Below, in pieces: positions 7,757 to 41,136 of a stretch of DNA of 41,912 nt (its first letter is position 1; each line of letters begins with the position of its first letter). The DNA comes from Escherichia phage Sortsne. The notes under the pieces are model-generated. The model did not search any database, was not told the origin of the DNA, and saw nothing but the letters and a program-made list of their open reading frames with translations. The stretch is taken from sequence record NC_048178.1. The stretch is one strand, 5' to 3'. The translations under genes were made by a program, and so were the position numbers.

Positions 7757-7789
7757 CTTTCTGTCTCCTCGTGTTGGTGTGATAAAGAA

Positions 7790-7818
7790 TATAACAAAGG
7801 ATAAGTTTACCCGCAAGA
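7790..7818 (-). promoter_or_regulatory. sigma70-like promoter TTGCGG-N17-TATATT, flanked by ATCACGAAA and TTATCACA motifs
   Basis: Minus-strand reading; immediately downstream of an intrinsic terminator. Confidence 0.45.
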
Positions 7819-7837
7819 GGTTTTTTAATTATTTCGT

Positions 7838-7864
7838 GATAAAAGAGAAAAGGCCCCGGAGGGC
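7838..7864 (-). terminator. intrinsic terminator within early minus operon
   Basis: GGCCCTCCGGGGCC hairpin followed by TTTTCTCTTTT on minus strand; promoter 7790-7818 follows. Confidence 0.5.
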
Positions 7865-7869
7865 CTCGA

Positions 7870-8610
7870 TCAGAATGGGACGTTTGCCTGGTACACGGCG
7901 AGGGCGAAGCCTTCGGGGGTGGCGCTGCGGATGTTCTTCGTGCGGGTTGATGATCCTCCCAGCTTGGCCCATCCCGGATTGTTGGCGACTGCCGGGACTG
8001 GCTTATGGTCGGGCATGTTGAAAGCGCCGCCGCACCAGATCCCCGTCTGCTTCGGGTAGCTGTCCCGCGCCGGGTAGATCTCCGGGTAGAGGCTATGCTG
8101 GTGATCCTCCGGCAAGTAGCCGCCGAAGTGGTACGGGTGGAACCAATGATCGCAAGGTCGCCACATCGTGGAGAGCCGGGAGATCTTCGGGTTCTCCAGC
8201 ATCCAGGGGATAGCCTCCTTGTCGTCATATCCGCCGCTCTCATACGCGGCAAAGATCGCCACCTGCTCGACCATCTTCGCCAGCGCCACAGCCTTCTCCT
8301 GGAAGCGCGGATCTTTCTTCCGCTTCGCTTCCCACCAGCGCGCCCCGGTACAGGTAAGATCGGTACACTCGGCGAACGACGCCACGAACATAACGCCGGG
8401 GCCGACCTCCTCCGCAATGCGGAGCGCTTCGGCTTCGGTGTTGTCGGCGTCGAACATGCGGCCCACGCGGACCAGGTTCGGCTCCTCCGGGTCGCGGTGG
8501 ATGCCGTCCGGGTGCTGGCCGTCATACATCCAGCATTCATAGCCGCCCTTAAGCCACGGATCAACCATGATCCGGGTAAGGTTGAATAAGAAAATCGCCT
8601 TACCCGCCAT
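7870..8610 (-). CDS. hypothetical protein (replication-module associated)
   Basis: Start refined to ATG at 8610 (MAGKAIF...) adjacent to upstream stop; no confident motif. Confidence 0.45.
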   Translation of the reverse strand: MAGKAIFLFNLTRIMVDPWLKGGYECWMYDGQHPDGIHRDPEEPNLVRVGRMFDADNTEAEALRIAEEVGPGVMFVASFAECTDLTCTGARWWEAKRKKDPRFQEKAVALAKMVEQVAIFAAYESGGYDDKEAIPWMLENPKISRLSTMWRPCDHWFHPYHFGGYLPEDHQHSLYPEIYPARDSYPKQTGIWCGGAFNMPDHKPVPAVANNPGWAKLGGSSTRTKNIRSATPEGFALAVYQANVPF

Positions 8611-8611
8611 A

Positions 8612-9211
8612 TTAACCTCTCGCTGGCATGATGATAAACGTAGCCGGACCGCAAGGCGTTTCGAACTCCACGCGGAGCGGCTGATCCTTCGCGGCGAAGT
8701 GGAGAGAAGCAAACGGCATCTTAGCGCCGAACTTTTTCCCCAGCTTCTCAATCAGGCCCAGATACTCGGAGGCCACCTTGATCTCCGTGATAGCCTTCGC
8801 GCCTGCCTTCTGCCCGGAGATCAGGCGATCCACGTCAGGATAGCGAGCGTCCACGACGTCCACCGTCCCGACCGCGCCGCGCATCTTGCGGAAGTCATAC
8901 TCCGCGAGGTCCTTCGGCTTATCGGCGATCGCGCTGGTCCAGTAGACGATCCCGGCTTCCGTATCAATGACCGCCGTCGAAAAGGCCCGGCCACTGGGGG
9001 GAGTCGAGATCTTGAGGATAACGCCCTCCTCCGGGGCGTTTACCAGGCCGTGGGCGCTGGAGAGCGCCACGTGACCGTTAGAGGACTGGATCGTGTTGCC
9101 TTTCAGGTGGACGGCGTTCAGATAATAGCGGACGTCGTTCTTTGCCTGGGTCAGCGCGTGGGCGCGTAATGCTTCTACGGGTGCATAAATAATCATCTTT
9201 GAGCCTTCCAT
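8612..9211 (-). CDS. truncated DnaN-like sliding-clamp protein
   Basis: DVRYYLNAVHL resembles the DVRYYLNG motif of DNA polymerase III beta clamp, and C-terminal FIIMPARG resembles the clamp C-terminus; about half the length of DnaN. Confidence 0.45.
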   Translation of the reverse strand: MEGSKMIIYAPVEALRAHALTQAKNDVRYYLNAVHLKGNTIQSSNGHVALSSAHGLVNAPEEGVILKISTPPSGRAFSTAVIDTEAGIVYWTSAIADKPKDLAEYDFRKMRGAVGTVDVVDARYPDVDRLISGQKAGAKAITEIKVASEYLGLIEKLGKKFGAKMPFASLHFAAKDQPLRVEFETPCGPATFIIMPARG

Positions 9212-9861
9212 TAAATCAGCGTCTTGCCATCAAAAATCATTTCCGCCTGCGTGACGTACTCCGTCTTGATCTCGCCACGTTTGCGCGGCTTGATAACGAA
9301 GATCACGGACGGCTTGCTGTTCTTCTTCCCGGCGATCTTCGTGTCGGCGCGCACAAAGGCCACACGGCCCGACGTCTCGCCGTCGCTGGTGATGTGAACG
9401 ACCAGACTCCCGGCGTCCAGCGCCTTCTTAAACCACGCCGTGGAGGCGTCGGAGTTCAGGAGGAGGACGGTCGTCACGCCGCGCGCCTTCGCCTGCTGGA
9501 CGGCCTTCTCCACCCAGGGAAGCGGGTCGGCGTATGGCGGGTTACACCATGCCAGCCCGTTCTCGGCTCCCCACTCCACGCCGTCGGCCAGCGCGTCCGT
9601 TGCTTCGTCCAGGTAGACGTCGCAAAGGGCGTTTTCCTTCTCCGCTGCCACGTCGATCCCGAACGCGCCGAAGCGCTTCACGCACCAGGCGAACAGCCAC
9701 GGCGGGGTCTGCCACTTCTGGCGGATGTTATCCGGCGTAACGCTGCCTTTGAAGCGACGCCCGGAAACCTTCACGGCGTCCTCCACCTGCGCCACCACTG
9801 CCGCCTCGCCGCCGATGGCTTCCACCGCGTCGATCGTTACTTTGTCGTTTTCGTCTTTCAT
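9211..9861 (-). CDS. dam: phage Dam-type DNA N6-adenine methyltransferase
   Basis: WQTPPWLF and NPPY (WCNPPYADP) motifs characteristic of phage N6A methyltransferases. Confidence 0.85.
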   Translation of the reverse strand: MKDENDKVTIDAVEAIGGEAAVVAQVEDAVKVSGRRFKGSVTPDNIRQKWQTPPWLFAWCVKRFGAFGIDVAAEKENALCDVYLDEATDALADGVEWGAENGLAWCNPPYADPLPWVEKAVQQAKARGVTTVLLLNSDASTAWFKKALDAGSLVVHITSDGETSGRVAFVRADTKIAGKKNSKPSVIFVIKPRKRGEIKTEYVTQAEMIFDGKTLI

Positions 9862-9869
9862 GTTGCGCC

Positions 9870-10307
9870 TTATTGTCCAGTTGATCCGAAGCCGCCGGAG
9901 CGGGTGCTGGTTGCTTCCGGGAGGGTGGTCACTTCGTCGAGTTCGACCTGTTCGATCGGGACGAGCATAAACTGGGCCACGCGGTCGCCCTTCTTGACCT
10001 GCGGCAAGCGGCCAGGGATATCACAATGTAACTTCACCATTACCTCGTCGCGGTAGTCGCTATCGATCACGCCGACGCAATTAGACAGGCGGGTGTTCTG
10101 GTTGAAACCCATCCCGGATCGGGAGTAGATCAGCATGGCCCAGCCTTCGGGGATAGCTACGGCCCAGCCAGTCCGGCACAGGATCGAGCCGTCGCCCTGC
10201 GCTTCTGCGGTCAGCGCGTAAACGTCCATACACGCGGAGCCGTCGGTGGCATAGGTGGGTAACTTAAAGTTTTCATCAGTGGTTAAGCGTTTGATCTTGA
10301 GTTCCAT
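9870..10307 (-). CDS. dut: dUTP diphosphatase
   Basis: Conserved dUTPase motifs (YSRSG, GVIDSDYRDEV, C-terminal RSGGFGSTG); GGAG RBS. Confidence 0.85.
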   Translation of the reverse strand: MELKIKRLTTDENFKLPTYATDGSACMDVYALTAEAQGDGSILCRTGWAVAIPEGWAMLIYSRSGMGFNQNTRLSNCVGVIDSDYRDEVMVKLHCDIPGRLPQVKKGDRVAQFMLVPIEQVELDEVTTLPEATSTRSGGFGSTGQ

Positions 10308-10456
10308 TTTGTACTCCAGTTGTTGTCTACGTGGTAAAGTTAACGGATTCGTGATTTTATTTCAAGTCAATTTGATGATAAATTATTAAATGTCTCTTTC
10401 GTCTGGTTCCCAGGCGTTACAAATTTAGCGCCGCTGGTATCTCGTGCGCTCCCATC

Positions 10457-10482
10457 GGCCCCACGTGCGGGGCCTTTTTTTT
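10457..10482 (+). terminator. plus-strand-oriented intrinsic terminator in primase-dUTPase intergenic region
   Basis: GGCCCCACGTGCGGGGCC hairpin followed by T8 on the plus strand; U-tract faces opposite to the flanking genes. Confidence 0.5.
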
Positions 10483-11293
10483 ACCCGAACGCCCCGCAAT
10501 AGTCCCCGCCCCATCTGGCGCGCCCGGTCTTGTCATAGGCATACATCCAGGCCTCGTCCGGGTCGGTGCATACCATGCGAAGCTCCCGATCGCCGTCGTA
10601 TTCGAGGGCCACCTGTACCGCGTTACGTGGCGTAAAGGTTAGCCATACCTCGGCCCCGGTGCGAGCGGCCACATTCACGGCATGGCCTGGATCGGCCACA
10701 AGATACGCCGTCTTGCCGTCGGGTACTGGGTGGATCAGGCCATAGGCTCCCCACGTCCGGCCACCAGCGGCGAACGCCACCGAACGGTCCGGCGCGATCT
10801 TCGCCACGTTGCAGGGCATCCCCCCAGACGCGCGGACGCATGGAACATACAGGAAGCCGTCGCGCATCGTGCCTTTAGCCATGACCTTCTCCACGTCCTC
10901 CGGCGTCAGGCTGTAGTCCTCGCCCGGCCTGTCCTGCATCCTGGCTAACTTCTTCGCCTCGCGGACGATCGTCTCCCGCTTCTCCGGGGTGAGTCCGCCT
11001 ATCCAGTCGCCCAGGTCGTTGATCGCCTCGTTGAATGGCTGGTTACGCGAGGCCATAAACCAAAACATGCCATCACGAGCGCCACCGCACGAGCCGGAGC
11101 AATAGGCGAAGCCCTCGCCCCGCTTATTGGCCTGCTTATGGCCCCATCGGAAACGGTCGGAGCCGCCACAGATCGGGCAAGCCTGGTGCTTCCCGTTGAA
11201 CGCCTTCCGGTCCCATCCGCACAGATCGAGGAGCGCCTGTTCCCACTTGCCGGGCATAGCGCCTAACACGTCCTCTTTTTTGTAAATTGCCAT
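10481..11293 (-). CDS. DNA primase (zinc-ribbon plus TOPRIM)
   Basis: N-terminal CPICGGSDRFRW...YCSGSCG primase-type zinc ribbon; C-terminal TOPRIM-like acidic motifs (YLVADPG...CTDPDEA). Confidence 0.7.
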   Translation of the reverse strand: MAIYKKEDVLGAMPGKWEQALLDLCGWDRKAFNGKHQACPICGGSDRFRWGHKQANKRGEGFAYCSGSCGGARDGMFWFMASRNQPFNEAINDLGDWIGGLTPEKRETIVREAKKLARMQDRPGEDYSLTPEDVEKVMAKGTMRDGFLYVPCVRASGGMPCNVAKIAPDRSVAFAAGGRTWGAYGLIHPVPDGKTAYLVADPGHAVNVAARTGAEVWLTFTPRNAVQVALEYDGDRELRMVCTDPDEAWMYAYDKTGRARWGGDYCGAFG

Positions 11294-11294
11294 C

Positions 11295-11323
11295 TTGCCC
11301 TCCGATAACTTCCCGTATACTAT
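11295..11323 (+). promoter_or_regulatory. sigma70-like promoter TTGCCC-N17-TACTAT for the plus-strand recombination operon
   Basis: In divergent primase/helicase intergenic region; TATCACGAAAGCG motif at start site. Confidence 0.45.
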
Positions 11324-11346
11324 ATCACGAAAGCGTTAAGAAACAA
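11319..11346 (-). promoter_or_regulatory. candidate divergent promoter TTGTTT-N16-TATAGT for primase operon
   Basis: Minus-strand reading; -10 overlaps the plus-strand -10 (TACTATA palindrome). Confidence 0.3.
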
Positions 11347-11360
11347 GAAAGGATAAAAGA

Positions 11361-13397
11361 ATGATTGAGACACTGGAGCGCCAGATCGAGGCGCTGGACC
11401 GGGACGCCATTCTCCGCACGTTGGGCGACCTCCCGGTGACTCCATACGATCACCAGTTCGTCGCCTATGAGGCTTGCCAGCAAGCGATCCGCAAGTACCC
11501 CGGCCCGGTTATCGTGGATGCCGCCGTTTCGGCGGGCAAGACCATCATGATCGCCATGCTGGCGCGCCGTATTCGTGATCTGGGCTTCCCGGCCATAATC
11601 CTGTCCCGTCAGGCGGAGATCATCGATCAGGACTTTGAGGAGTTGAAAAACTTCGGCGTCCCATCGTCGATCTACTGCGCCGGGCTTAACCGGAAGTCGG
11701 CCCACTTCCCGATCGTGGTCGGCTCGGAGGGTACGGTGATCGGTGGCCTCCAGCCCGGTAAACATCTGGCCGACTATGCCCCGCTGTTCCTGCTGATCGA
11801 TGAATGCCACCACGTGAACATAGAGGACCTGATCCGCTCTGAGACGCGAAAAGTCCCGGAGTATCTCATGGAGAACGGGGAGATCGTGCTGAATGGCTTC
11901 GGGGAGCCGGAGCAAATCGGCGAGCATATCGGCGAGACTTACGAGGAAATGATCGAGGCTGGCCGCGCCGCGTATACAGTCATTATCCGCACGTTACAAA
12001 AGCGTTGCCGGGAGCGGTACGGCAAAGAGCTACGCATTATCGGTTATACCGGGACGCCTTACCGTGGCGTGGAGTCCATCGTCCAGCCTAACCTAAAAGA
12101 GCCGGGCTTCTGGCGGAAGATCGTCACGAACATTTCAACGGAATATCTGGTAAGCGTTGGCGCGGTGGTCCCGACTCGCTTCGGCGTGTCCGATCTCCAT
12201 TACGACCTCGACCAGTGGCGATCGACGGGCGAGGATGGCATTAAGGAGTTCAGCGACGCGGATATGGCCGCGATGCAAGCCCAGATCCTCAAAGACAAAA
12301 AGCTCACGCAAAAGATCATGGCGGAGGTCTACGCCATCACCCAGGACCGCCTCGGCGTTCTGGTGACGTGCGCCGGGGTTCGCCACTGCAAGGAAGCCGC
12401 CGAAGCGCTGCCGCCCGGTACGCCTTACGCCATCATTACCGAAGATACCGGACCGAAGAAACGCCGCGATATCCTGCGCGACGCCAATACGGGCAAAATC
12501 AAATTTATCTTCCAGGTTAACGCGCTAACGACGGGCGTTAACGTGCCATTCTGGGACACGTCCGTGATCCTGCGGAAGATTGGCTCCCTCACCCTGTTAA
12601 CCCAGCTTTTGGGCCGTGGTATGCGCATCCTTAAGCCGTTCCACATCGCCGCCGGGTACACGAAGGAGGATCACCTGGTGCTCGACTATGCCGGGACGCT
12701 GGACGAGTTGGGATCGCTGTACTTCTCCCCGCTGCTGGAGGCTTACCAGCATAACGCCGACGAGGCAAAGGGCGCGCTCGTTGTACCGTGTCCGAAGTGT
12801 AAGGCCGCTGGGCGGAAAGTCCTTAACGGCGAACATGCTCGCCGCTGCCGCTACGTCGATCCCGATACTAAAATCCGGTGCGATCATTTCTTCCAGTTCA
12901 TCACCTGCGACGACTGGAAGGACGCCAACGGCAAGACCATCACACAAAAGGGGTGCGGGGCGAAAAATGATATCGTCGCGCGGATCTGCCGCTGCTGCGG
13001 TAACAGCCTGATCGATCCGAACGAAAAACTATCCCACACGGCATACAGCAAGGACGACTATTGCAACGTGCGCGGCTTCGCCATTGAGCCAGCGCGAGGG
13101 CGTGGCGGGCTGGCCTTCCGGTACGATCTGGAAAAGGACGGCGTGGAGTTCAGGGCGTGGCAAGTCTTTTGGCCGGGCAGCGAATCCCCCCAGGCGCGGA
13201 AGGAGTGGGAGTTCAACGGGATCGGTAAGCACGTTCTGGACGCTGGCAAGCGCCGCGAGATCAAGAAATGCCGCACCGTGGAGGCCGTACTGGCTTACGC
13301 TCCGTACTTCATGGCCCCGCTGAAAGTTACCCACCGCAAGATCGGCAAGGGTAAGGACGTAATCACCAACAAAATTTTCATTAACGAGGACTTTTAA
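11361..13397 (+). CDS. SF2 DEAD/DEAH-type DNA helicase with C-terminal zinc ribbon
   Basis: Walker A AAVSAGKT, DECH box (LLIDECHHV), helicase C-terminal motifs, CPKCKAAG...C Zn ribbon. Confidence 0.8.
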   Translation: MIETLERQIEALDRDAILRTLGDLPVTPYDHQFVAYEACQQAIRKYPGPVIVDAAVSAGKTIMIAMLARRIRDLGFPAIILSRQAEIIDQDFEELKNFGVPSSIYCAGLNRKSAHFPIVVGSEGTVIGGLQPGKHLADYAPLFLLIDECHHVNIEDLIRSETRKVPEYLMENGEIVLNGFGEPEQIGEHIGETYEEMIEAGRAAYTVIIRTLQKRCRERYGKELRIIGYTGTPYRGVESIVQPNLKEPGFWRKIVTNISTEYLVSVGAVVPTRFGVSDLHYDLDQWRSTGEDGIKEFSDADMAAMQAQILKDKKLTQKIMAEVYAITQDRLGVLVTCAGVRHCKEAAEALPPGTPYAIITEDTGPKKRRDILRDANTGKIKFIFQVNALTTGVNVPFWDTSVILRKIGSLTLLTQLLGRGMRILKPFHIAAGYTKEDHLVLDYAGTLDELGSLYFSPLLEAYQHNADEAKGALVVPCPKCKAAGRKVLNGEHARRCRYVDPDTKIRCDHFFQFITCDDWKDANGKTITQKGCGAKNDIVARICRCCGNSLIDPNEKLSHTAYSKDDYCNVRGFAIEPARGRGGLAFRYDLEKDGVEFRAWQVFWPGSESPQARKEWEFNGIGKHVLDAGKRREIKKCRTVEAVLAYAPYFMAPLKVTHRKIGKGKDVITNKIFINEDF

Positions 13398-13399
13398 GC

Positions 13400-13846
13400 A
13401 TGGGAACGATTAACAAAAAAGTGGAGTTCTGGCGCGAGTTTTACCCGGAGCATAAGGCGACCTACAGCCCGAAAGAGGAGGTAGAACAGAAGATCACGGC
13501 GTCCCACATCCAGTACAATTACCCGGACCTTCTGGCCTTCCATCCGGTCAATGAGTCCGGCGGGTCCGGTGATGCCGCCTACGGGGCGAAGTTAAAGGCG
13601 CTGGGCCGACTGGCCGGGATCTCTGACTGGGTGATCCTGGAGCCGCGCGGCGGGTATGGCTTCGCGCTGATCGAGTTGAAACGGAACGACCGGAGCAAAT
13701 CGCGCCTTAACCCGGAGCAAAAGGAGATCCTGGAGAAAGCGCGGGCGCGTGGTGGCTGGACGGCGGTCGCATGGGGTGCGGACGCCTTCGAGGTCGCGCT
13801 GGATTATTATCTCTCTCTACCGCTTGCAAATATCACGAAAGCGTGA
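13400..13846 (+). CDS. VRR-NUC domain nuclease
   Basis: ISDWVILEPRGGYGFALIELKRND matches the PD-(D/E)XK core of VRR-NUC proteins. Confidence 0.7.
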   Translation: MGTINKKVEFWREFYPEHKATYSPKEEVEQKITASHIQYNYPDLLAFHPVNESGGSGDAAYGAKLKALGRLAGISDWVILEPRGGYGFALIELKRNDRSKSRLNPEQKEILEKARARGGWTAVAWGADAFEVALDYYLSLPLANITKA

Positions 13847-13852
13847 TTTAAT
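13824..13852 (+). promoter_or_regulatory. promoter TTGCAA-N17-TTTAAT with perfect 16-bp palindrome ATCACGAAAGCGTGAT in the spacer
   Basis: Palindrome at 13832-13847 overlaps the VRR-NUC stop codon; precedes exonuclease gene. Confidence 0.45.
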
Positions 13853-13887
13853 TACTCTCACGTTATCCACACGAGAGAGACAAAATT

Positions 13888-14928: not shown

Positions 14929-14930
14929 TC

Positions 14931-15650: not shown

Positions 15651-15652
15651 GC

Positions 15653-16198: not shown

Positions 16199-16205
16199 TT
16201 AACTA

Positions 16206-16245
16206 ACAGGCCCCTCCGGGGGCCAGATCCTCCCAGGGGTCGAAG
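16206..16245 (+). repeat. conserved intercistronic element, copy 2 (hairpin GGCCCC-UCCG-GGGGCC plus CCCAGGGGTCGAAG leader)
   Basis: Near-identical to 3461-3498. Confidence 0.6.
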
Positions 16246-16686: not shown

Positions 16687-16711
16687 CGTATATCACTAAT
16701 TAATTAATAAT
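16683..16711 (+). promoter_or_regulatory. promoter TTGACG-N17-AATAAT upstream of Cro-like HTH gene, with TATCAC motifs
   Basis: TATCACTAATTAATTAATAATCACGG spans spacer and start region. Confidence 0.45.
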
Positions 16712-16729
16712 CACGGAGACGTTAACAAA

Positions 16730-16957
16730 ATGATGGAGCCTATGATGGCGCAAAAATTAAAGCCTGTTTGCCTCGTGAAAGAAGTCCGCGAAGCGAAGGG
16801 CGTCAAACAGAAAGACCTCGCGGAAGCGACTGGCATCCTCCAGCAACGTTTAAGCTGCTATGAGAACGGCCACGATCTCCCGTCTGTAACTAACCTCTGC
16901 CGCCTTGCTGTAGCGCTGGAGGTTTCCATTAACGATCTGATCGAGTACGGAGTGTAA
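16730..16957 (+). CDS. XRE-family helix-turn-helix regulator (Cro-like)
   Basis: 75 aa; GVKQKDLAEATGILQQRLSCYENG is a classic XRE HTH; own promoter carries TATCAC motifs. Confidence 0.7.
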   Translation: MMEPMMAQKLKPVCLVKEVREAKGVKQKDLAEATGILQQRLSCYENGHDLPSVTNLCRLAVALEVSINDLIEYGV

Positions 16958-16958
16958 T

Positions 16959-17204: not shown

Positions 17205-17221
17205 ACCGGAATCGAGAGACG

Positions 17222-17252
17222 AGAAAGGGGCCAATTAAGGCCCCTTTTTTTA
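17222..17252. terminator. bidirectional intrinsic terminator between recombination operon and tailspike
   Basis: AAAGGGGCC-AATTAA-GGCCCCTTT plus T-run; convergent gene ends. Confidence 0.8.
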
Positions 17253-19625: not shown

Positions 19626-19651
19626 TAAAAAGGGGGCCTAAGCCCCCGTTA

Positions 19652-29498: not shown

Positions 29499-29529
29499 GC
29501 TCTTTTCTCCACCGATGGATTAAAAATGG

Positions 29530-30600: not shown

Positions 30601-30990
30601 CTATTTCTTGTCTAACTGGTGTCTTAAGCGGGCGACTTCACCATACAAAATCCGAATGTGATCGGCGAAGAACTTCGACTCCTCTCCCGGCGTCACGTGG
30701 ATCGGGATCATGTAGTACGTCGCCCGGCCCTTCGCTGGCTCGTCCGGCGTCGGCTCCGTCACTTCCGCCTCGGAGTAGGCGATCCGGTACTCCGCGCCCT
30801 GCGGCGGGTTAGGCTTCCGGTCGCCCGGCTTCATTTCCTTGAGGTAGGCCAGATACTGCTCCATCTGCTCGTCCGTCGGGGCAAACTCCACAAAGCCATC
30901 GAGCGGATCGTGGAGCGGCTCGCCTTCGACCTCCCGGATCTGGCGGGCCATGACGCCGCCTAAAAAGTGGTAACGGTGGGTCATTTTCAT
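30601..30990 (-). CDS. hypothetical protein (portal-scaffold insertion, gene 3 of 3)
   Basis: Start refined to ATG at 30990 (ATGA overlap with upstream stop). Confidence 0.4.
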   Translation of the reverse strand: MKMTHRYHFLGGVMARQIREVEGEPLHDPLDGFVEFAPTDEQMEQYLAYLKEMKPGDRKPNPPQGAEYRIAYSEAEVTEPTPDEPAKGRATYYMIPIHVTPGEESKFFADHIRILYGEVARLRHQLDKK

Positions 30991-31403
30991 TTGTTGCGCG
31001 CTCCGATCATGGCTTGCCAGGTAAACACGACCGTATCGGAAAGAAGCTCGTCCACTCCCTCCTCCTCCATCTGCTCGTAAAGTCCATCGAGAGCGCCGGG
31101 GATCTGCTCCCATAGGGCTTTACGTCCGGCCTCGATCTGCTCCGCCGTCGGCTGGAGTTCCACCTCGATCGGGGCCGGAGCGACTTCGCCCGCCTTCACC
31201 TGCGGCTCCGCGTTGGTCATGAGGGCCTCGACCTGCATCGCCACGATAGCGATCGCCATGCCATACGCCGCCAGATCCTGCTCGGTCGGCTGCTGAATGA
31301 AACGGCCAGCCAGTCGGGCCTCGTGCTGCTTCACCAGCGCCTCGATCCCCATTTCTTCGGCCTGGGCCAGCATGATCGCGCGCATTGCTTTTGCTTCGTT
31401 CAT
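30987..31403 (-). CDS. hypothetical acidic protein (portal-scaffold insertion, gene 2 of 3)
   Basis: 138-aa ORF preceded by GGCCCC-CACA-GGGGCC hairpin and CCAACCAACGAGAGAGAC leader. Confidence 0.45.
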   Translation of the reverse strand: MNEAKAMRAIMLAQAEEMGIEALVKQHEARLAGRFIQQPTEQDLAAYGMAIAIVAMQVEALMTNAEPQVKAGEVAPAPIEVELQPTAEQIEAGRKALWEQIPGALDGLYEQMEEEGVDELLSDTVVFTWQAMIGARNK

Positions 31404-31453
31404 CGTTTTGTCTCTCTCGTTGGTTGGTTAGGCCCCCACAGGGGCCGGGTTAG

Positions 31454-31897: not shown

Positions 31898-31937
31898 CTT
31901 GTGCTCCGTTGTTTATCACTGTTTCGTTGTTTCTTGT

Positions 31938-31956
31938 GACAAAGAATAGCCCGGAC
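31938..31956 (-). terminator. hairpin after portal gene (attenuator or processing site)
   Basis: AGCCCGG-CAAGT-CCGGGCT followed by AUUCUUU on minus strand. Confidence 0.3.
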
Positions 31957-31997
31957 TTGCCGGGCTGTAAAGTGGTTTTTTAACGAAAGTGATATTT

Positions 31998-34232: not shown

Positions 34233-34247
34233 GTTCTTCTCCGTGGG

Positions 34248-36276: not shown

Positions 36277-36805
36277 GGAGGAGTTGCTCCAGCGTTGCGA
36301 TACGTTCCAGGAGGTCGGACAGTTCGGCCACTTCTGCGCCGTGTCGGATCATCTTCACGAGGACCTCGGCGGCGTCGAACGGGATCACCCCGTCGGCCAC
36401 GTGCTGGGTTAGCTCGTCGATACGGTCGGCGGCGGTCGTGCCTTTGAGTTCGAATTGATAGATCGGCGCGGTCGGCTTCACGTAGGGGATAAGACGGCCC
36501 AGGATATCGCGCATCATGGCCGGGTCATAGAGGGACATTTCGATCGCGCGCTGGATGTATAGCTCCTCGGTAAGCGGGATCTCCACCATTTCGTCCTCCA
36601 TGATCGGGCGGTCGTTCTCGTCCAGCATGACCTCGCCCGTCTTGGGGTTGACCTTTTCGATCTTCTCCCCGGTGCGCTCCTTCATTTTCACCTTGCGGAG
36701 AGCCTCCAGCAAGATCGTGCGGAATTGCTTCTCCCTGCCACGGCGGGCGGGCTGGTTCTCCGCGCTAAACTTCTTGCCCTTCTTAAGATTCTGCTCGTTC
36801 GCCAT
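36260..36805 (-). CDS. putative terminase small subunit
   Basis: 181 aa with basic N-terminus (NLKKGKKFSAENQPARRGREK) and helical remainder; by position; identity uncertain. Confidence 0.4.
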   Translation of the reverse strand: MANEQNLKKGKKFSAENQPARRGREKQFRTILLEALRKVKMKERTGEKIEKVNPKTGEVMLDENDRPIMEDEMVEIPLTEELYIQRAIEMSLYDPAMMRDILGRLIPYVKPTAPIYQFELKGTTAADRIDELTQHVADGVIPFDAAEVLVKMIRHGAEVAELSDLLERIATLEQLLHDSKK

Positions 36806-36806
36806 G

Positions 36807-36858
36807 ATAAAAAAAATCCTCCGGTTGGCCTGAATTGTTCCAGGTGTTGCGGAGGATT
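36807..36858 (-). terminator. intrinsic terminator-like hairpin plus U8 tract immediately upstream of terS start
   Basis: 9-bp stem AATCCTCCG/CGGAGGATT, 26-nt loop, then TTTTTTTT on the minus strand, overlapping the terS RBS. Confidence 0.4.
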
Positions 36859-36862
36859 GTCG

Positions 36863-36891
36863 TTTATACCGGGGCCGTGATCAAGTCCACG
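36863..36891 (-). promoter_or_regulatory. candidate late promoter (-10 TATAAA, weak -35) just upstream of terminator and terS
   Basis: Minus-strand TGGACT-N15-TATAAA; would give a short hairpin-plus-U8 transcript unless antiterminated. Confidence 0.25.
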
Positions 36892-37186
36892 GCGATCCCT
36901 TGCCGGGGGAGAGGTCCGGGCATAGGTGCATATTCTCCGGGGTGATAGGCCAGGGGCTAACCGGGTGACGGTACGCCAGGGAGTCGGCCTTCTTGGCGAT
37001 GTACCCCCGGACCTTCCCGCCGCCGCGCTGGCTGCTGTATGCCGCACAGATCACGCACGAGCCGTTAGTGGTGTATCGAGTGAAGTTGCCGGGGTGCTCC
37101 TTGCACTCCCCGCCGTGGTACGTCTTGCGCTTGAGGAGAAGGGCCTCCGCCCTGCTCCGCGCCACTGAGCGCTCTTTCGTCTCCAT
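36881..37186 (-). CDS. hypothetical Cys/His-containing protein (candidate late regulator)
   Basis: 101-aa ORF coupled to upstream gene (TGATG); 3' end overlaps a promoter-like -10 and precedes a terminator; coding status uncertain. Confidence 0.3.
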   Translation of the reverse strand: METKERSVARSRAEALLLKRKTYHGGECKEHPGNFTRYTTNGSCVICAAYSSQRGGGKVRGYIAKKADSLAYRHPVSPWPITPENMHLCPDLSPGKGSPWT

Positions 37187-37689
37187 CAGTCACAGCCCCC
37201 GGAGGAGGACGATCCGCTGTCGCTGCTGCCGGAGTCGTAGCTCCCGCCGTCGTCGTGGCTGGAGTGGTGGCGGCTGCTGCTGTCGTCGTGGCTGCTGGAG
37301 TGGCTGCGGTGGCTGCTGCTGTCCCAGTCCGCCCGGTCGCTGGTGTGGCAGATCGGATTGAGTGGCGAGGTCAGGGAAAGCGGGTTCAGCGGGTCGAGGT
37401 CGTCGCCCTGGTTGCGGAGTGCGCGCCGGGTCGGGTCGCTGCGGAGGGCGTTCGCCTCACGTGCTGCGGACTTGTCGGCCATGCTGCGGGGAGCCTGCAC
37501 GACCTTAGCCTGGGGACGGTTCGCCATCGTCTCGATCATGCGCTCCATACGCGCCTTACCGCTTAGGACGTCCTGGACGCTGCGCTGGTTGCAGTCGTCA
37601 CAGATCCAGAATACGTCCGCGCTCTCGGTCCATTTGCGCGGGGCCTGCTTGCCGCACGTGCGGCACTCTTTGAAACGTTTAAGGGACAT
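37186..37689 (-). CDS. zinc-ribbon protein with His/Ser/Asp-rich low-complexity tail
   Basis: Start refined to ATG 37689 with conserved CACGAGAGAGA leader; CRTCG...(17)...CDDC ribbon; C-terminal SSSHRSHSSSHDDSSSRHHSSHDD. Confidence 0.45.
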   Translation of the reverse strand: MSLKRFKECRTCGKQAPRKWTESADVFWICDDCNQRSVQDVLSGKARMERMIETMANRPQAKVVQAPRSMADKSAAREANALRSDPTRRALRNQGDDLDPLNPLSLTSPLNPICHTSDRADWDSSSHRSHSSSHDDSSSRHHSSHDDGGSYDSGSSDSGSSSSGGCD

Positions 37690-37757
37690 TGTGATCTCTC
37701 TCGTGGGTGGAAACGGCCCCAGCATAGCGCCGGGGCAAACATCATGCAAGCGTTAAA

Positions 37758-38039
37758 TTATGCGGACAATACCCACCAGCCCATAGCCACGATAAGCGCG
37801 CCGAAGCCGATCCACTTCCACGGCAACGGCTTAACGTCTGCGAGCGCCGCCATCAGTCCGGGAGGGCCGGAGATCTCGACGCCGTTCGAGGTGGTCATAG
37901 TCCCGAATACGCCCTCCGCCTGTAGCCTGCGCTTTACCGCGTCAAGGTCTACGGGCGGGCGGTTGATCCAGTCGCGGACCTCTCGATCCGGGATGTACCC
38001 CGGAGGGAATGCTCGATCCCCCCAGGTCCCGGCGGTCAC
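37758..38039 (-). CDS. hypothetical protein with C-terminal TM anchor
   Basis: 93 aa, C-terminal WKWIGFGALIVAMGWWVLSA hydrophobic helix. Confidence 0.4.
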   Translation of the reverse strand: MTAGTWGDRAFPPGYIPDREVRDWINRPPVDLDAVKRRLQAEGVFGTMTTSNGVEISGPPGLMAALADVKPLPWKWIGFGALIVAMGWWVLSA

Positions 38040-38986
38040 TTTACGCGGCGGAAGCGCTTAACCTGTTCCCACGCGACGACGCTCACCTGGAGCGTGTTAT
38101 GGCGTCCGCCTACCGTCTCGATCTCCACCATATCGTCGTCGTTCAGGAGGGGCGGGCGGCGGTCCTTGTCGAAGCGCTGCCACACGATCCAGTCCTCGCC
38201 CTGTTCGCCAGTCTGCGGACGGTCCAGCAAGGCGTCCAGCAATGCCTCCGCCGTACCGATAGTGATCCGCCCGCCTCGGTACTGCTCGATCAGTTGGCGG
38301 GTCTGGTCGGAGCGCTGGATGTGCCAGCGGAGGCTCTGCTCCGTCTCCTGGTGGACGCGCTCGGCGAAGTGGGCCACGCGCTCCGGGTCGGTGTCGCAAC
38401 GGGTCAGGCGCTCGCGGGCTTCGTGCTCGTTAACAAGCTGCTGGAGGCCGCGCGTCGGCATCTTGAAAACGTTCCAGTTATACGGGACGCGCTTCTCGTC
38501 GCAAGCCTTCACGTAACGCTCCAGAAGGTCCACGCGGCGCTCGGCGTCCTTCGCTGCCTCGGCGTGTTTCTCGCTGGCTTCGGCCATTGCCACCAGTTCG
38601 CGGGCCTTCTGCTCGGTCCATGCGATGGTCTGCGGCTTGCCGTCGATCGGGCGGAAGGTTGGCGGGACGTGTAGCGCGCCGACGATCTCGCGGATGTTCA
38701 CGTAATACCCGCTCATCCGGTGCTCCGCCTCGGTCATGGTCTGGAGTTGGCGCTCCAGTGCGCGCTCGTGGGACTTGTCGCGCCACTTCTCCGACTCCTT
38801 GAATACACGCTCCAGCGCGTCGAGGGACAGGAGGGGGAGGTGGTGCGGGGCCAGGTCCGGCTCGGCCTTAAAGCCGTGTTGCATGGCGTCGGTAACGTCG
38901 GCGATCCAGTTGGCGCGCTGCTGTACCTGGGTGCGGGCTACATGGTCCATCAGGGCGTAAGCCACGCCGCTGTCGTGTGAGTTCAT
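38036..38986 (-). CDS. hypothetical protein
   Basis: 316-aa ORF preceded by hairpin plus CCAACCAACGAGAGAGAC leader. Confidence 0.5.
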   Translation of the reverse strand: MNSHDSGVAYALMDHVARTQVQQRANWIADVTDAMQHGFKAEPDLAPHHLPLLSLDALERVFKESEKWRDKSHERALERQLQTMTEAEHRMSGYYVNIREIVGALHVPPTFRPIDGKPQTIAWTEQKARELVAMAEASEKHAEAAKDAERRVDLLERYVKACDEKRVPYNWNVFKMPTRGLQQLVNEHEARERLTRCDTDPERVAHFAERVHQETEQSLRWHIQRSDQTRQLIEQYRGGRITIGTAEALLDALLDRPQTGEQGEDWIVWQRFDKDRRPPLLNDDDMVEIETVGGRHNTLQVSVVAWEQVKRFRRVK

Positions 38987-39032
38987 AGTCTTGTCTCTCT
39001 CGTTGGTTGGCCCCGTTGCCGGGGCGGTTGGA

Positions 39033-39257
39033 TTAAAAGCCGTCGTAGTAGCCAGGGAGGGCGCGGAGTTGCGCTTCGTCGTCCACCAGGTCCCACTCTG
39101 TCGGCTCCAGGTCGATCGTTACGCCAGCCAGCCCGTCGCGGTCCGCGAGTGCTGCGTGGATCATCATGCCAGCCACCAGCGGGGAAGGGTTGCCGCTTGC
39201 CATCTGGCGGGCGATCTCTGCCTGAATCTCTGCGAGTGTCTCGGCTAATGTTTTCAT
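39033..39257 (-). CDS. hypothetical protein
   Basis: Start refined to ATG 39257 (AGAGGA RBS) downstream of promoter 39304-39332 and its 5' hairpin. Confidence 0.4.
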   Translation of the reverse strand: MKTLAETLAEIQAEIARQMASGNPSPLVAGMMIHAALADRDGLAGVTIDLEPTEWDLVDDEAQLRALPGYYDGF

Positions 39258-39275
39258 GCTGCGGTCCTCTGGTTG

Positions 39276-39294
39276 GGCGGGACCATTTCCCGCC
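39276..39294 (-). promoter_or_regulatory. 5'-UTR hairpin GGCGGGA-AAUGG-UCCCGCC (boxB-like candidate)
   Basis: Perfect 7-bp stem with the same AAUGG pentaloop as the hairpin at 3179-3197. Confidence 0.4.
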
Positions 39295-39303
39295 GTCCAG
39301 ATA

Positions 39304-39332
39304 AATATAACGCTATCGTGATAATCATGCAA
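39304..39332 (-). promoter_or_regulatory. promoter TTGCAT-N17-TATATT with ATCACGATAGCG in spacer
   Basis: Minus-strand reading; followed by 5' hairpin with AAUGG loop. Confidence 0.45.
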
Positions 39333-39340
39333 GCATTATT

Positions 39341-39613
39341 TTATTCTTTATCATCCCATCGATCGCGGTCGAATAGTACGCCCTTTCGGAAGTCGTCCCA
39401 CGCGAAGTACGGCCACACGACCAGGGACAGCGACGCGAACAGGACCACGATCAGCGCCACGAGGAAGCCCAGAAGGGGGAGGAGGGCCGGAGGGACTGCC
39501 CGCGCCTCACGTGCCAGGCTGCGGCCCAGGAACGCGCCCGCGCCCTGGTATGCCTGCATTACGATGTAAGTCACGCCCAGCGCGACGTAAGAGAGTATCA
39601 GTTCGATAAGCAT
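39341..39613 (-). CDS. small membrane protein
   Basis: 90 aa, two predicted TM segments. Confidence 0.45.
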   Translation of the reverse strand: MLIELILSYVALGVTYIVMQAYQGAGAFLGRSLAREARAVPPALLPLLGFLVALIVVLFASLSLVVWPYFAWDDFRKGVLFDRDRWDDKE

Positions 39614-39840
39614 CAGTAGATCCCATTGGTGAGTAAGAACAGCCGCCCGTTTTGCATCAGGCGGATCATGTCGCTGGTCCCGCGCCCCATCGGGACCGGG
39701 TAGAGTTTGCCGTCCTCTGCGCGCATATACAGGCGGTTACGGACGCGCCAGCCCTGGAGGGTGTGGCCCCGGCGTCCGTACTGGTCGCGCTTCACGTCCA
39801 CGATCCGGCAATAGATCGCGCGCTCCTCGATCTGCATCAT
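39613..39840 (-). CDS. hypothetical protein
   Basis: 75-aa ORF with start/stop overlaps on both sides. Confidence 0.4.
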   Translation of the reverse strand: MMQIEERAIYCRIVDVKRDQYGRRGHTLQGWRVRNRLYMRAEDGKLYPVPMGRGTSDMIRLMQNGRLFLLTNGIY

Positions 39841-40217
39841 GCGAACCTCCGCGCGTGTCGTGGGAGGGTGTCCAGGTCGTGGTCCCAGCGGACCGCCTCG
39901 CGTGGCTTGCGGTAGCCCTCGTAAAGCATCTGGATCGCCGCCATCGGGTCGGACGGGAGCGACTCGTGGACGTACAGGAGGAACTCGCCCCGGCGTCCGT
40001 TGTGCTGCATACCGAAGCCGCTCCGGTGGTAGTGCTCGACGTTCAGCGTCGGCTCCGCTGGTGGCATGGAGGGGAACGGGTCGATCGCCACTGGTGAGGG
40101 CATGGCGAGGACGGGCTGGCCGTCCATGACGCTGACGCGCTGGCCGTCGTGCGGGCCGCCAATGAGTAGCGCCTGGACGTAGGTCGCTGGTGTGGTGTTG
40201 GTCATTCGAAGCTCCAT
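39837..40217 (-). CDS. hypothetical protein
   Basis: 126-aa ORF; alternative ATG at 40205 gives ATGA coupling to the small ORF upstream. Confidence 0.4.
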   Translation of the reverse strand: MELRMTNTTPATYVQALLIGGPHDGQRVSVMDGQPVLAMPSPVAIDPFPSMPPAEPTLNVEHYHRSGFGMQHNGRRGEFLLYVHESLPSDPMAAIQMLYEGYRKPREAVRWDHDLDTLPRHARRFA

Positions 40218-40336
40218 TCCGCGAAAGCGCGGCGTAAGCCCATGCGGGCGTTAGTGATGGCTACCCACTGATCCAGCGCGTCGGGCTGGCGGTGGTAGTG
40301 GTTCGTTATGGCGATGGCGATCGCGCTGCGGTCCAT
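40202..40336 (-). CDS. small ORF (44 aa)
   Basis: Below track cutoff; GGGAGG RBS 5 nt upstream of ATG; stop overlaps downstream ATG (ATGA). Confidence 0.3.
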   Translation of the reverse strand: MDRSAIAIAITNHYHRQPDALDQWVAITNARMGLRRAFAEWSFE

Positions 40337-40379
40337 CAGATCCTCCCAGGATGCCCGGCTCTCGACCGGGCGGTGGTGT

Positions 40380-40694
40380 TTACAGTGCTGGCAAACTGCC
40401 GACGTCGCGGGATGCCTTGAGCGCGTTCCAGTGGTCGAACGGTGACGGCTCGCGCCACGAGTGATCGCACTGGCCGAAAGAGAGGTGTCCGCACTCCAGA
40501 AGCGGGCCAGTGTAGCCGATGCGGGTTAGCTCGCTGTTCGGGACTTCCATCAGCGTGTCGAGGGTCCAGCGGTTGTCCTCGCCGTAGCGGTACGGCTCGG
40601 CCTGGACACGGACCGGGAAGCGGACGGACTCGAAGCCGCTCGGAAAGTAGCCGCGCCCGTAGCTGTCGGCGTTCAGAAGGATGATTGTTTTCAT
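40380..40694 (-). CDS. hypothetical protein
   Basis: 104 aa, preceded by GGCCCC-TTGC-GGGGCC hairpin plus CCAGCGAGAGAC leader. Confidence 0.4.
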   Translation of the reverse strand: MKTIILLNADSYGRGYFPSGFESVRFPVRVQAEPYRYGEDNRWTLDTLMEVPNSELTRIGYTGPLLECGHLSFGQCDHSWREPSPFDHWNALKASRDVGSLPAL

Positions 40695-40739
40695 GGTGTC
40701 GTCTCTCGCTGGTGGTGGCCCCTTGCGGGGCCGTGTGGG

Positions 40740-41024
40740 TTATGCTGCGGCCAGTTCGCCGCCGATGAATGCCAGGACTTCGCGGAGGTGCTTCTCGTCG
40801 CGGATGGTGGCCGGGAGTTCTTCCTTGATGGCGCGATCCAGGTAGATATTGCCATTCCATGTATAGGAGCCGTTAGGGTTGACCAGATAGGAGAACATCC
40901 ATTCGCAATCGTTATCCGCTTCCCACACGCACAGGATGATCTTGCCGTCGTTGTCGATATCTTCCAGGGTCACGTCGAGGTTACGTTTTGCTGCGAAGGT
41001 TTTTGTAGTTTTGGACAGGTTCAT
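40740..41024 (-). CDS. hypothetical protein
   Basis: Start refined to ATG 41024 (MNLSKTTKTF...) with conserved CCAGCGAGAGAGAC leader. Confidence 0.4.
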   Translation of the reverse strand: MNLSKTTKTFAAKRNLDVTLEDIDNDGKIILCVWEADNDCEWMFSYLVNPNGSYTWNGNIYLDRAIKEELPATIRDEKHLREVLAFIGGELAAA

Positions 41025-41136
41025 GGCTTCGTCTCTCTCGCTGGTGGGCTGCACCGTTGCCGCCCTTGATGTGATAAAGAATATCTCAGAGGCGGCAAGG
41101 TGTCCAGCAAAATATCACGAAAAGATTAAATTATTT

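Follow-up and report, generated by a model that had tools for sequence, protein, structure and literature searches.

Escherichia phage Sortsne (NC_048178.1) repeats, upstream of several of its genes, a short leader in which a C/A-rich tract is followed by a purine block, ACGAGAGAGAC or a variant of it, and then by the start codon. What do these leaders do, and how has one genome come to hold them in near-verbatim copies? An earlier note on this DNA had counted seven of them, before the start codons at 7756, 13888, 31403, 37689, 38986, 40694 and 41024, and had offered two answers, a phage-specific enhancer of translation initiation or a recognition site for a phage factor. The leaders were compared within the whole stretch of 41,912 nucleotides, here called the window, and with the corresponding junctions in relatives. 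Judged from the sequence, the seven leaders are probably the version, in the window's clade, of modular translation-initiation cassettes that lie between cistrons or in 5' untranslated regions (5'-UTRs) and that also act as recombination linkers.

Genome setting of the leaders

The window (41.9 kb) is a complete or near-complete phage genome with a GC content of about 60% and P22-type portal, coat and terminase genes, and the hosts of the group are enterobacteria. Nucleotide identity is about 80% to Klebsiella phage IME279 and Escherichia phage sortkaff (Sortsnevirus) and also about 80% to IME_EC2, sortsyn and Lumpael (Murrayvirus) and to Kosakonia phage Kc237. Contigs of relatives, cited below by number where they must be told apart (L107 and so on), were gathered via protein search, in which more than 20 contigs of 37 to 43 kb were listed, and Logan/ENA, and six Logan/ENA contigs extended the comparison of junctions.

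On the minus strand, the leftward early region (41.9 to 36.9 kb) and a small cluster of orphan open reading frames (ORFans) lying between portal and scaffold together hold five of the seven leaders. The 7756 leader heads a short leftward operon at 7.7 kb, and the 13888 leader heads the rightward exoVIII-erf-ssb operon. A function is known for one of the seven downstream genes, that of exonuclease VIII; the other six are ORFans, for the most part small and early. Each of the seven starts is an ATG, and the products align with their orthologues from residue 1.

A purine block is repeated before seven start codons

All seven leaders were present at the start codons claimed for them, with the block 4 to 6 nt 5' of the ATG and in the same orientation as the gene:

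7757..7781, minus strand: leader CACACCAACACGAGGAGACAGAAAG of gene 7466-7756; a C/A-rich tract plus the canonical Shine-Dalgarno (SD) sequence GAGGAG, with a duplex energy to the anti-SD of -8.9 kcal/mol
13864..13887, plus strand: leader TATCCACACGAGAGAGACAAAATT of the exonuclease VIII gene
31404..31430, minus strand: leader TAACCAACCAACGAGAGAGACAAAACG of ORFan 30987-31403, predicted to be fully unpaired
37690..37714, minus strand: leader GTTTCCACCCACGAGAGAGATCACA of ORFan 37186-37689; 26/26 identical in L107 and L108 and 25/26 in L109
38987..39009, minus strand: leader CAACCAACGAGAGAGACAAGACT of ORFan 38036-38986, predicted to be unpaired
40695..40716, minus strand: leader ACCACCAGCGAGAGACGACACC of ORFan 40380-40694, with one GA fewer; 26/26 identical in L107 to L109
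41025..41048, minus strand: leader CCCACCAGCGAGAGAGACGAAGCC of ORFan 40740-41024; identical in L107 and L109 and near-identical in Cronobacter phage ESP2949-1
30478..30495, minus strand: an eighth variant, ACGAGAGAGGATCTATAC, before the scaffold gene; a hybrid of the GA block and the GAGGATCTA style

The description of seven conserved copies was right in its core. The exact block CGAGAGAGAC occurs four times, at 13872-13881 (plus strand) and at 31410-31419, 38993-39002 and 41031-41040 (minus strand), where it serves the 13888, 31403, 38986 and 41024 sites. Two leaders deviate from it, 37689 by a final T (CGAGAGAGAT) and 40694 by the loss of one GA (CGAGAGAC), and the 7756 variant CGAGGAGAC, with the block written GAGGAGAC, is an ordinary strong SD. 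The list was incomplete, since the eighth variant, ACGAGAGAGGATC, had been missed. The leaders at 31403 and 38986 are identical over about 25 nt, spacer and second codon included.

With up to one mismatch, ACGAGAGAGAC matched the window seven times against 0.90 ± 1.0 expected, and none of 100 shuffles reached seven; five of these seven matches are leaders, 4 to 6 nt before real ATG starts. The 17-nt degenerate pattern CCAMCMRCGAGAGAGAY with up to two mismatches gave four matches against 0.11 expected. The bare 9-mer with one mismatch showed no enrichment genome-wide (14 versus 11.1), and thus the nonrandomness sits in the exact copies and their position. The 14-mer CCAACGAGAGAGAC was found in 93 unrelated contigs of IMG/VR, close to the chance level, and preceded ATG or GTG in about 21% of cases versus about 16% expected.

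The block is a weak SD in a start region predicted to be open

Duplex energies were calculated with the 16S 3' end of E. coli rrsH as the anti-SD. The six GA-type copies gave -3.6 to -7.7 kcal/mol, compared with -8.9 for the 7756 leader and up to -11.7 for other genes, which bears out the claim that the block matches the SD poorly. These energies fall in the weakest third of genes. Pairing of the GA type with 16S comprises 2 + 3 bp around an A:C mismatch, with at most three contiguous pairs. When a canonical SD was taken as at least four contiguous bases complementary to CCUCC lying 5 to 10 nt before the AUG, the blocks were found in the right position, and 7756 alone had the pairing.

The start regions were predicted to be unusually open. 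The mean minimum free energy of positions -25 to +15 was -1.3 kcal/mol for the seven leaders versus -5.4 for 43 other start regions among our own gene calls. The region from -25 to -1 held 1.4 T residues on average in the leaders and 4.9 in the others (p = 0.004), and the mean unpaired probability was 0.61 versus 0.52 (p = 0.02). Folds of the 31403, 38986 and 40694 regions each predicted a single hairpin followed by a wholly unpaired stretch through the AUG. A stretch built of C and A alone, set beside one built of G and A alone, has no means of self-pairing, which would be a simple way for a start region to stay open despite the 60% GC content.

C/A-rich or ACA tracts beside an SD enhance initiation in Salmonella and E. 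coli, by more than 10-fold in some cases, and shifts in their position are tolerated (Yang et al. 2014, PMC3879156). Ribosomes use single-stranded CA tails of 12 to 18 nt for standby binding (Sterk et al. 2018, PMC5934652), and C/A enhancer tracts can compensate for a poor or hidden ribosome-binding site (RBS) (PMC3879156, PMC5934652). In the predicted folds of the window, an unpaired C/A-rich tract likewise adjoins the SD. Taken together, the anatomy, the openness and the C/A enhancers of the literature lead us to read the unit as a translation-initiation cassette. The earlier suggestion of a C/A-rich initiation enhancer fits the SD position, the weak SD and the U-poor leaders predicted to be unpaired. 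The label phage-specific applies only loosely: sister clades have ordinary GGAG or GAGG SDs in their orthologous leaders, and the same layout is found in an unrelated Drexlerviridae phage.

On the mRNA, the cassette begins with an upstream stop codon or a sigma-70-like promoter, a short C/A-rich run and a G/C stem closed by a GNRA or UNCG tetraloop. It continues with 8 to 14 nt that are almost all C and A, the purine block, an A-rich spacer of 4 to 6 nt and the AUG, usually with AAN next. The hairpin would fold at once, shielding the start region from upstream coding RNA and guarding the 3' end of the upstream cistron against exonucleases. Because the C/A tract and the G/A block would pair neither internally nor with one another, they would form a permanently single-stranded landing or standby site for the ribosome. 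The (GA)3-4 block may then act as a weak, multiregister anchor on the 16S 3' end, with accessibility and the C/A enhancer making up for its weakness, and each unit would be self-contained, serving its cistron without translational coupling to the neighbor.

Two further possibilities were considered and rejected. Extra complementarity to 16S rRNA was limited to three 6-mers at the chance level, and the match CCAACC/GGUUGG falls within helix 45, on the side of the anti-SD where it would be of no use. A tRNA-like minihelix with NCCA, a possible substrate for RNase P or the CCA enzyme, was also discarded because the first CCA follows the stem at no fixed distance, from 1 nt to more than 8 nt among cassettes.

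The hairpins show signs of selection as RNA

The following structures lie upstream of leaders or in the same arrangement before other genes:

31431..31446, minus strand: post-stop hairpin GGCCCC-UGUG-GGGGCC, preceding the 31403 leader
39010..39025, minus strand: post-stop hairpin GCCCCG-GCAA-CGGGGC; GNRA loop, z = -3.1, with a GCGA loop in L107
40717..40732, minus strand: post-stop hairpin GGCCCC-GCAA-GGGGCC; GNRA loop, z = -2.8
37716..37749, minus strand: promoter-like TTGCAT-17 nt-TATGCT and a stem-loop (37716-37736) whose loop holds the -10 hexamer; PeSL-like (see below), kept in all clades
41046..41106, minus strand: region 5' of the 41024 leader that has a promoter-like TGGACA-17 nt-TATTCT (41078-41106) as well as an imperfect 5' stem, GGGC..GCCC (41046-41065)
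13855..13879, plus strand: 5'-UTR hairpin CUCUCACG/CGAGAGAG, with the purine block as its 3' arm, just downstream of a promoter
3464..3498, plus strand: cassette with a canonical SD, GGCCCC-UUCG-GGGGCC + AUCCACCC + AGGAG + N6 + AUG, before gene 3499
16209..16245, plus strand: cassette GGCCCC-UCCG-GGGGCC and a second hairpin, GAUCCU/GGGGUC, that pairs the SD, before gene 16246

A perfect GGCCCC-N4-GGGGCC hairpin had been described before four of the leaders. The motif is real and does occur four times in the window, against 0.46 expected, but it precedes just two of the listed leaders, 31403 (at 31431-31446) and 40694 (at 40717-40732). The other two literal copies (3464 and 16209) precede the plus-strand genes 3499 and 16246, which have canonical SDs. 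Of the remaining leaders, 38986 has a different perfect hairpin, 37689 has the -10-like TATGCT in the loop of its stem, the stem of 41024 is imperfect, and hairpins of this kind are absent from 7756 and 13888.

The hairpins do lack a U-tract, as had been noticed, with 0 to 3 T residues in the 8 nt after each. A scan for terminators flagged none of the post-stop hairpins; the sole stem that it flagged (40352-40372) was flagged on the opposite (plus) strand. The G/C stem of an intrinsic terminator is thus present without an immediate U-tract, which makes stabilization of the upstream RNA 3' end more likely than termination. In contrast, the evident terminators of this phage do have a U-tract, as in GGGGCC-AAUUAA-GGCCCC-UUUUUUU at 17227-17252, between convergent transcription units.

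A GNRA or UNCG sequence makes up the 4-nt loop in 10 of 11 unique leader units and, in a larger set, in 10 of 12 different leader hairpins. Other perfect G/C hairpins of these genomes have such a loop in 20 of 185 cases (Fisher p about 1e-8), and 4.7% would be expected if loops were random. Orthologous hairpins vary the N within UNCG (UUCG, UACG, UGCG), as at the 3499 junction, where the loops UUCG, UACG and UGCG are all UNCG, and GNRA is retained as GCAA, GCGA or GAAA. The stems, of 5 to 7 bp, interchange GGCCCC/GGGGCC and GCCCCG/CGGGGC via paired changes; at 39010-39025, the orthologous stems GGCCCC/GGGGCC represent two compensatory pair changes. The orthologues of the 31431-31446 hairpin are GCCCCGG-ACCG-CCGGGGC, GGCCC-CACG-GGGCC and GGCCCC-GGACA-GGGGCC. 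The tetraloop bias and the compensatory changes indicate, at the level of sequence comparison, that the leader hairpins are under selection as RNA. Stems of 5 to 7 bp are too short for RNase III, which makes a role as an exonuclease barrier or insulator more likely.

Given this selection, the hairpin itself could be the main element, a partial attenuator or terminator or a processing or stability signal that sets the stoichiometry of cistrons in the manner of the T4 PeSL stem-loops, with the purine block an incidental SD. The position of the hairpins directly after stop codons fits such a role, as do two promoters with stem-loops between or over the -35 and -10 hexamers, an arrangement that in PeSLs was shown to cut read-through (PMC2839356). 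This proposal nevertheless leaves the verbatim purine block and spacer unexplained, three leaders (7756, 13888 and 41024) have no such hairpin, and the stems differ from the evident terminators of the phage in having no U-tract. As a full account it is possible but rather unlikely, and it largely complements the translation-initiation cassette.

Each clade has its own version of the block

The orthologue of each downstream gene was located in the relatives, and the region upstream of it was read. All clades share one architecture: a stop codon (usually TAA), a few C/A-rich bases, a G/C stem of 5 to 7 bp, a linker, a purine block, 4 to 7 nt and ATG. The C/A-rich linker takes the forms CCACC, AACCAACC and CCACCC. 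The filling of the purine position changes with the clade. At the 38986 gene, the GAGAGAGAC position holds CGGAGAACACC in the IME279 clade; at both the 38986 and the 40694 genes, it holds CAGAGGATCTAC in the Murrayviruses; and at the 41024 gene, it holds CAGAGGGCAAG in relatives. In phage ESP2949-1, the 40694 gene has ATCACTGAGGGTTTTGCA, with a GAGGG SD, behind an identical hairpin. The orthologous leaders of 7756 are CCAACCAGCGAGGAAAAC. The 37689 leader is also found in the Murrayviruses, and the IME279 clade has AAGGAGAT or AAGGAT instead. Ordinary SDs thus replace the block while the genes, the hairpin and the C/A tract persist, which indicates that GAGAGAGAC is an interchangeable filling and not a separate signal.

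Within each clade, the filling is reused as a house style. GAGAGAGA[CT] stands before a start in five of its six occurrences in the window and in 3/3, 4/4 and 4/4 in the three closest relatives. GGAGAACAC marks the IME279 clade, with 1 to 3 copies per genome and mostly 2 or 3, and GAGGATCTA marks the Murrayviruses, with 2 to 5 copies per genome (5/5 in Lumpael). Nearly every house-style copy sits directly before a start; in two of the three styles, the block includes a canonical SD. Verbatim reuse of leaders is, on this comparison of sequences, a family-wide habit, of which the GA version is the style of the window's clade. Such clade styles are what concerted evolution of the SD region predicts and are hard to reconcile with a dedicated reader of GAGAGAGAC.

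A dedicated reader is what the second answer of the earlier note would need. In that account, ACGAGAGAGAC and its flanks would be the operator for a trans-acting regulator, such as a translational repressor or activator, an endoribonuclease or a small RNA, that unites the genes in one posttranscriptional regulon, as do T4 RegA and RegB and the factor proposed for SAS (see below); the house styles would reflect coevolution with a clade-specific factor. Exact 10- to 11-mers do recur at nonorthologous genes, all 26 nt including the spacer are invariant in the clade beside proteins down to 50 to 65% identity, a weak SD would leave translation dependent on something else, and coregulation is plausible for six orphan genes of seven, mostly small and early. 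However, sister clades that keep the same genes have ordinary SDs at the same junctions. Searches of the small genes with Pfam and PHROGs found no RNA-binding or nuclease domain, only families of unknown function and a dUTPase; the sole clade-specific ORFan (30601-30990) gave a weak model and no fold match. No Rfam family matched at its gathering score in the whole window, no complementary CUCUCUC was found on same-sense transcripts outside coding DNA, and the complementarity of host GcvB was unremarkable, with leader-R1 duplex energies in the middle of the range for all genes, so that a GcvB target site was rejected. The proposal of a phage-factor recognition site thus lacks support, as the block is not kept across clades, the small genes searched have no RNA-binding domain and no complementary RNA was found, and we consider the operator improbable. 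We give similarly little weight to two narrower forms of this idea, in which the GA leader, together with its spacer, would be read by a clade-specific phage or host factor that switches the orphan genes jointly, or in which a block free of GGA and GGAG would evade an SD-targeting factor such as a CsrA-like repressor or a RegB-like nuclease. If either were true, the house style of each clade would be a lock that fits a key of its own.

Cassettes hold the end points of gene gain, loss and replacement

In comparisons with L108 and L109, the nearest relatives with long contigs, structural genes were 95 to 98% identical and early ORFans 25 to 90%, and the intergenic cassettes were 94 to 100% identical. 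The cassette of the 40694 gene was 98% identical and the gene 69%, and the corresponding values for the 37689 gene were 94% and 60%. In the window's clade, leaders are 26/26 identical beside proteins of 50 to 65% identity. Identical leaders driving unrelated genes in L108 and L109 were considered, but BLASTP showed these genes to be diverged orthologues with indels.

One exchange concerns gene X (74 aa, 39033-39257), which has its own cassette:

39258..39294, minus strand: cassette GGCGGGA-AAUGG-UCCCGCC + CAACC + AGAGGA before gene X; it forms the left joint of a replacement locus with three alleles

Gene X is missing in sortkaff and Lumpael, where the deletion ends inside the two flanking leaders at a shared ..CCATGAAC. 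An unrelated 109-aa gene takes its place in L109 and L110, and L108 has nothing there. The exchanged segment reaches from the SD position as far as the following hairpin, and the sequences agree again in the CAACCA linker. This locus has three alleles, with CAACCA linkers as boundaries.

A second case crosses phage families. The two-gene ORFan block 40380-41083 (minus strand) is about 80% identical to positions 2501-3184 of ESP2949-1 (L104), a siphovirus of the Drexlerviridae. The similarity covers the promoter -10 region, leader 1 and the hairpin, and identity drops at leader 2. Further junctions in ESP2949-1 have the same layout of hairpin, C/A tract and SD, and homologues of the 94-aa gene are also found in T4-like and T1-like phages.

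Recombination among the repeated cassettes would homogenize the leaders in concerted evolution, and the same recombination would make the cassettes joints for the insertion, deletion and replacement of small ORFans. The near-verbatim repeats within one genome are what is expected if leaders evolve in concert. The 31403 and 38986 leaders, identical in the window while their orthologues differ, point to conversion between cassettes.

Several observations weigh against the translation-initiation cassette as we propose it. In the predicted fold, the purine block of the 13888 copy is paired in a conserved 5' hairpin and does not lie in an open leader. The pairing is kept by other sequences in IME_EC2 (CUUUCUCAC/GUGAGAGAG) and Lumpael (CCUCUCAC/GUGAGAGG) and is absent in IME279. 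As this block is partly sequestered, translation of the recombination operon may be damped. A leader that is invariant, spacer included, beside diverged proteins suggests more constraint than a generic RBS has and would fit a sequence-specific reader. The accessibility statistics compare 7 with 43 sequences and depend on our own gene calls. The argument from joints is suggestive and not proof, because surviving indels are expected in intergenic DNA when others are lethal. Finally, we infer translation strength, hairpin formation in vivo and transcript ends from the sequence.

The role of the repeats might instead lie at the DNA level, as promoters for a phage-specific transcription system or as targets of a dedicated recombinase that mobilizes ORFan cassettes. 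The repeats are indeed strand specific and at gene boundaries, gene replacements end in them, and the phage encodes the recombination genes ExoVIII, Erf and SSB. A GNRA/UNCG bias, however, is meaningful in RNA only, and general short-homology recombination suffices for the joints. No unexplained open reading frame of RNA polymerase size was found, and the annotations of relatives hold none; with no candidate polymerase and a motif not kept across clades, a promoter for a phage RNA polymerase was rejected. The RNA-type loop bias and the missing phage polymerase make a DNA-level role very unlikely. Similarity that arose by chance from purine-rich SDs in a genome of high GC content, for which the unenriched 9-mer and the chance-level 14-mer in IMG/VR speak, is refuted by the excess of the 11-mer (7 versus 0.9) and of the 17-mer pattern, by two leaders identical over about 25 nt and by leaders kept 26/26 in relatives, and deserves practically no credence.

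Comparison with known repeated leaders

The start-associated sequences (SAS) and extended SAS (ESAS) of Cluster K mycobacteriophages are one of the two closest parallels. SAS is a repeated 13-bp sequence, GGGATAGGAGCCC, with up to 2 deviations, for which translation initiation or a bound factor has been proposed and whose function is unproven (Pope et al. 2011, PMC3203893). Like the leaders described here, SAS is a short asymmetric repeat in one orientation at the RBS position, 3 to 7 nt before a mostly ATG start (here 4 to 6 nt, all ATG), and it lies mostly in the nonstructural part of the genome before unrelated gene families; about half of its copies have an inverted repeat immediately upstream. 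The two differ in sequence and host, since the block here is ACGAGAGAGAC in an enterobacterial phage and SAS belongs to Mycobacterium. SAS has a strong AGGAG core plus conserved positions unable to pair with 16S rRNA. The GA block has no GGAG core; its flanks, the C/A tract and the spacer, are conserved and nonpairing. SAS persists across subclusters; the GA block persists within the window's clade and gives way to GGAGAACAC or GAGGATCTA in the sister clades. The imperfect 17-bp repeats of ESAS have no support as RNA hairpins; the stems here are 5 to 7 bp and perfect, with compensatory changes and GNRA or UNCG loops.

T4-type PeSL (promoter-early stem-loop) cassettes, the other close parallel, consist of a promoter, a stem-loop and an SD between ORFans and are shuffled as modules (Arbiol et al. 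2010, PMC2839356; Comeau et al. 2014, PMC4122927). Mini-circles arise when PeSL cassettes recombine with each other, and the PeSL stem-loop has terminator activity. They too are repeated intergenic cassettes that end in SD and ATG, with stem-loops of G-runs and C-runs, and they too lie among ORFans in plastic (mosaic) regions, where indels and replacements in relatives end inside cassettes. In both systems, some stem-loops are placed over the -35 and -10 hexamers or in the gap between the two. Every PeSL, however, has a strong sigma-70 early promoter in an AT-rich context, whereas three of the seven units here (31403, 38986 and 40694) are purely intercistronic, and the phages of this group are about 42 kb, with P22-like virion genes and about 60% GC. 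By analogy, the cassette would work like both SAS and PeSL and is a member of neither.

The C/A enhancers and CA tails (PMC3879156, PMC5934652) share with the leaders a single-stranded C/A tract directly 5' of the SD and a flexible position, but they are individual host mRNAs or synthetic tails with no repeated cassette. Host C/A tracts are GcvB targets; the leaders here are not outstanding in complementarity to GcvB R1. Hyperstable C(UUCG)G and GNRA tetraloop hairpins in phage mRNAs were first noticed in T4 mRNA (PMC4371310). They resemble the hairpins here in having short G/C stems and UNCG or GNRA loops, in lying between cistrons and in lacking a U-tract, but in T4 neither a fixed C/A linker nor a repeated SD block goes with them. 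Tuerk et al. reportedly described such hyperstable tetraloop hairpins in phage (T4) mRNA in 1988. In the modular evolution of lambdoid phages, short conserved sequences at gene borders are said (by Susskind and Botstein in 1978 and Clark et al. in 2001) to supply the homology for module exchange. The linkers here differ in being identifiable regulatory RNA elements, with an exchange known from genome comparison alone.

The cassettes reveal no new kind of signal. If the proposed model is correct, a unit of about 45 nt would show how a weak SD is made workable by an insulating hairpin and a nonpairing C/A and G/A leader, which would be useful for RBS design in GC-rich contexts. It would also provide a case of concerted evolution of regulatory sequences inside a small genome, and it would extend regulatory linkers that serve as joints for ORFan swaps, so far mainly T4-type PeSLs, to P22-like podoviruses and perhaps Drexlerviridae. 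The model predicts that a change of GAGAGAGAC to AGGAGGAC keeps or raises expression and that a change to CACACACAC strongly lowers it. For the annotation of these genomes, a practical rule is that the start codon lies 4 to 6 nt after a house-style block.

Promoters, palindromes and other features of the window

Promoter-like hexamers were found at 7756, 13888, 37689 and 41024 and not at 31403, 38986 and 40694, where the hairpin directly follows the stop codon. Two further rows complete the list of features:

7788..7816, minus strand: sigma-70-like promoter TTGCGG-17 nt-TATATT that feeds the 7756 leader; kept in relatives
40338..40371, minus strand: cassette GCCCGG-UCGAGAG-CCGGGC followed by AUCCUGGGAGGAU, with the SD paired

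The -10 region of the 7756 promoter, TATATTCTTTATCACA, is repeated at the 41024 and 31454 promoters. At 31943-31971 (minus strand), a promoter-like TTTACA-17-TATTCT has a stem-loop, AGCCCGG-CAAGU-CCGGGCU, between the -35 and -10 hexamers, as in T4 PeSLs; its -10 context, TATTCTTT(A/G)TCACA, is repeated at the 7756 and 41024 promoters.

A second class of leader was seen at 16225-16245 (plus strand) and 40338-40352 (minus strand), in which a canonical SD is taken up by an additional small hairpin, paired there with a CCUC or AUCCU mimic that lies 5' of it. The sequestering pairs are GAUCCU/GGGGUC (16225-16245) and AUCCU/AGGAU (40338-40352), in contrast to the open GA type. A long-range pairing of AUCUCUCUC (13809-13817) with the 13888 leader was also considered and was not favored in the ensemble fold.

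Two conserved segments resemble leaders and lead to no gene. At 10392-10483 (minus strand), the primase stop codon is followed by an A8 run, a hairpin GGCCCC-GCACGU-GGGGCC and a conserved noncoding GAACCAGACGAAAGAGAC, with no ATG after it; the hairpin reads as a U-tract terminator on the opposite strand. At 17205-17252 (plus strand), a conserved CGAGAGACGAGAAAGGGGCC runs into a bidirectional terminator, and the CGAGAGAC copy there precedes no gene.

The promoter upstream of 13888 carries a perfect palindrome, ATCACGAAAGCGTGAT (13832-13847), of the operator-like form ATCACG-N4-CGTGAT. Further sites of this form, at 10340-10355, 11324-11339, 16710-16725, 39307-39322 and 41795-41810, overlap promoter-like sequences. 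With up to two mismatches, the motif matched 10 times against 1.9 expected. The XRE-like regulator encoded at 16730-16957 probably binds these palindromes. An exact-protein look-up of the 75-aa regulator gave no match, and a metagenome scan with the 316-aa protein gave no relative.

The dUTPase gene (9870-10307, minus strand) has its own promoter and a canonical SD. It is missing in all six GenBank relatives compared and is therefore an insertion specific to the window. The 129-aa ORFan 30601-30990 (minus strand) overlaps the preceding gene at ATGA and is thus translationally coupled. It is confined to the window's clade, with 3 homologues among 5.8 billion proteins; its AlphaFold model was weak (pLDDT 73, other models about 50), with no significant fold match in the PDB. 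The 167-aa ORFan 37186-37689 (minus strand) ends in a long low-complexity C-terminal tail rich in Ser, His and Asp (...SSSHRSHSSSHDDSSSRHHSSHDDGGSYDSGSSDSGSSSSGGCD), and the product is 167, 174 or 191 aa long among relatives.

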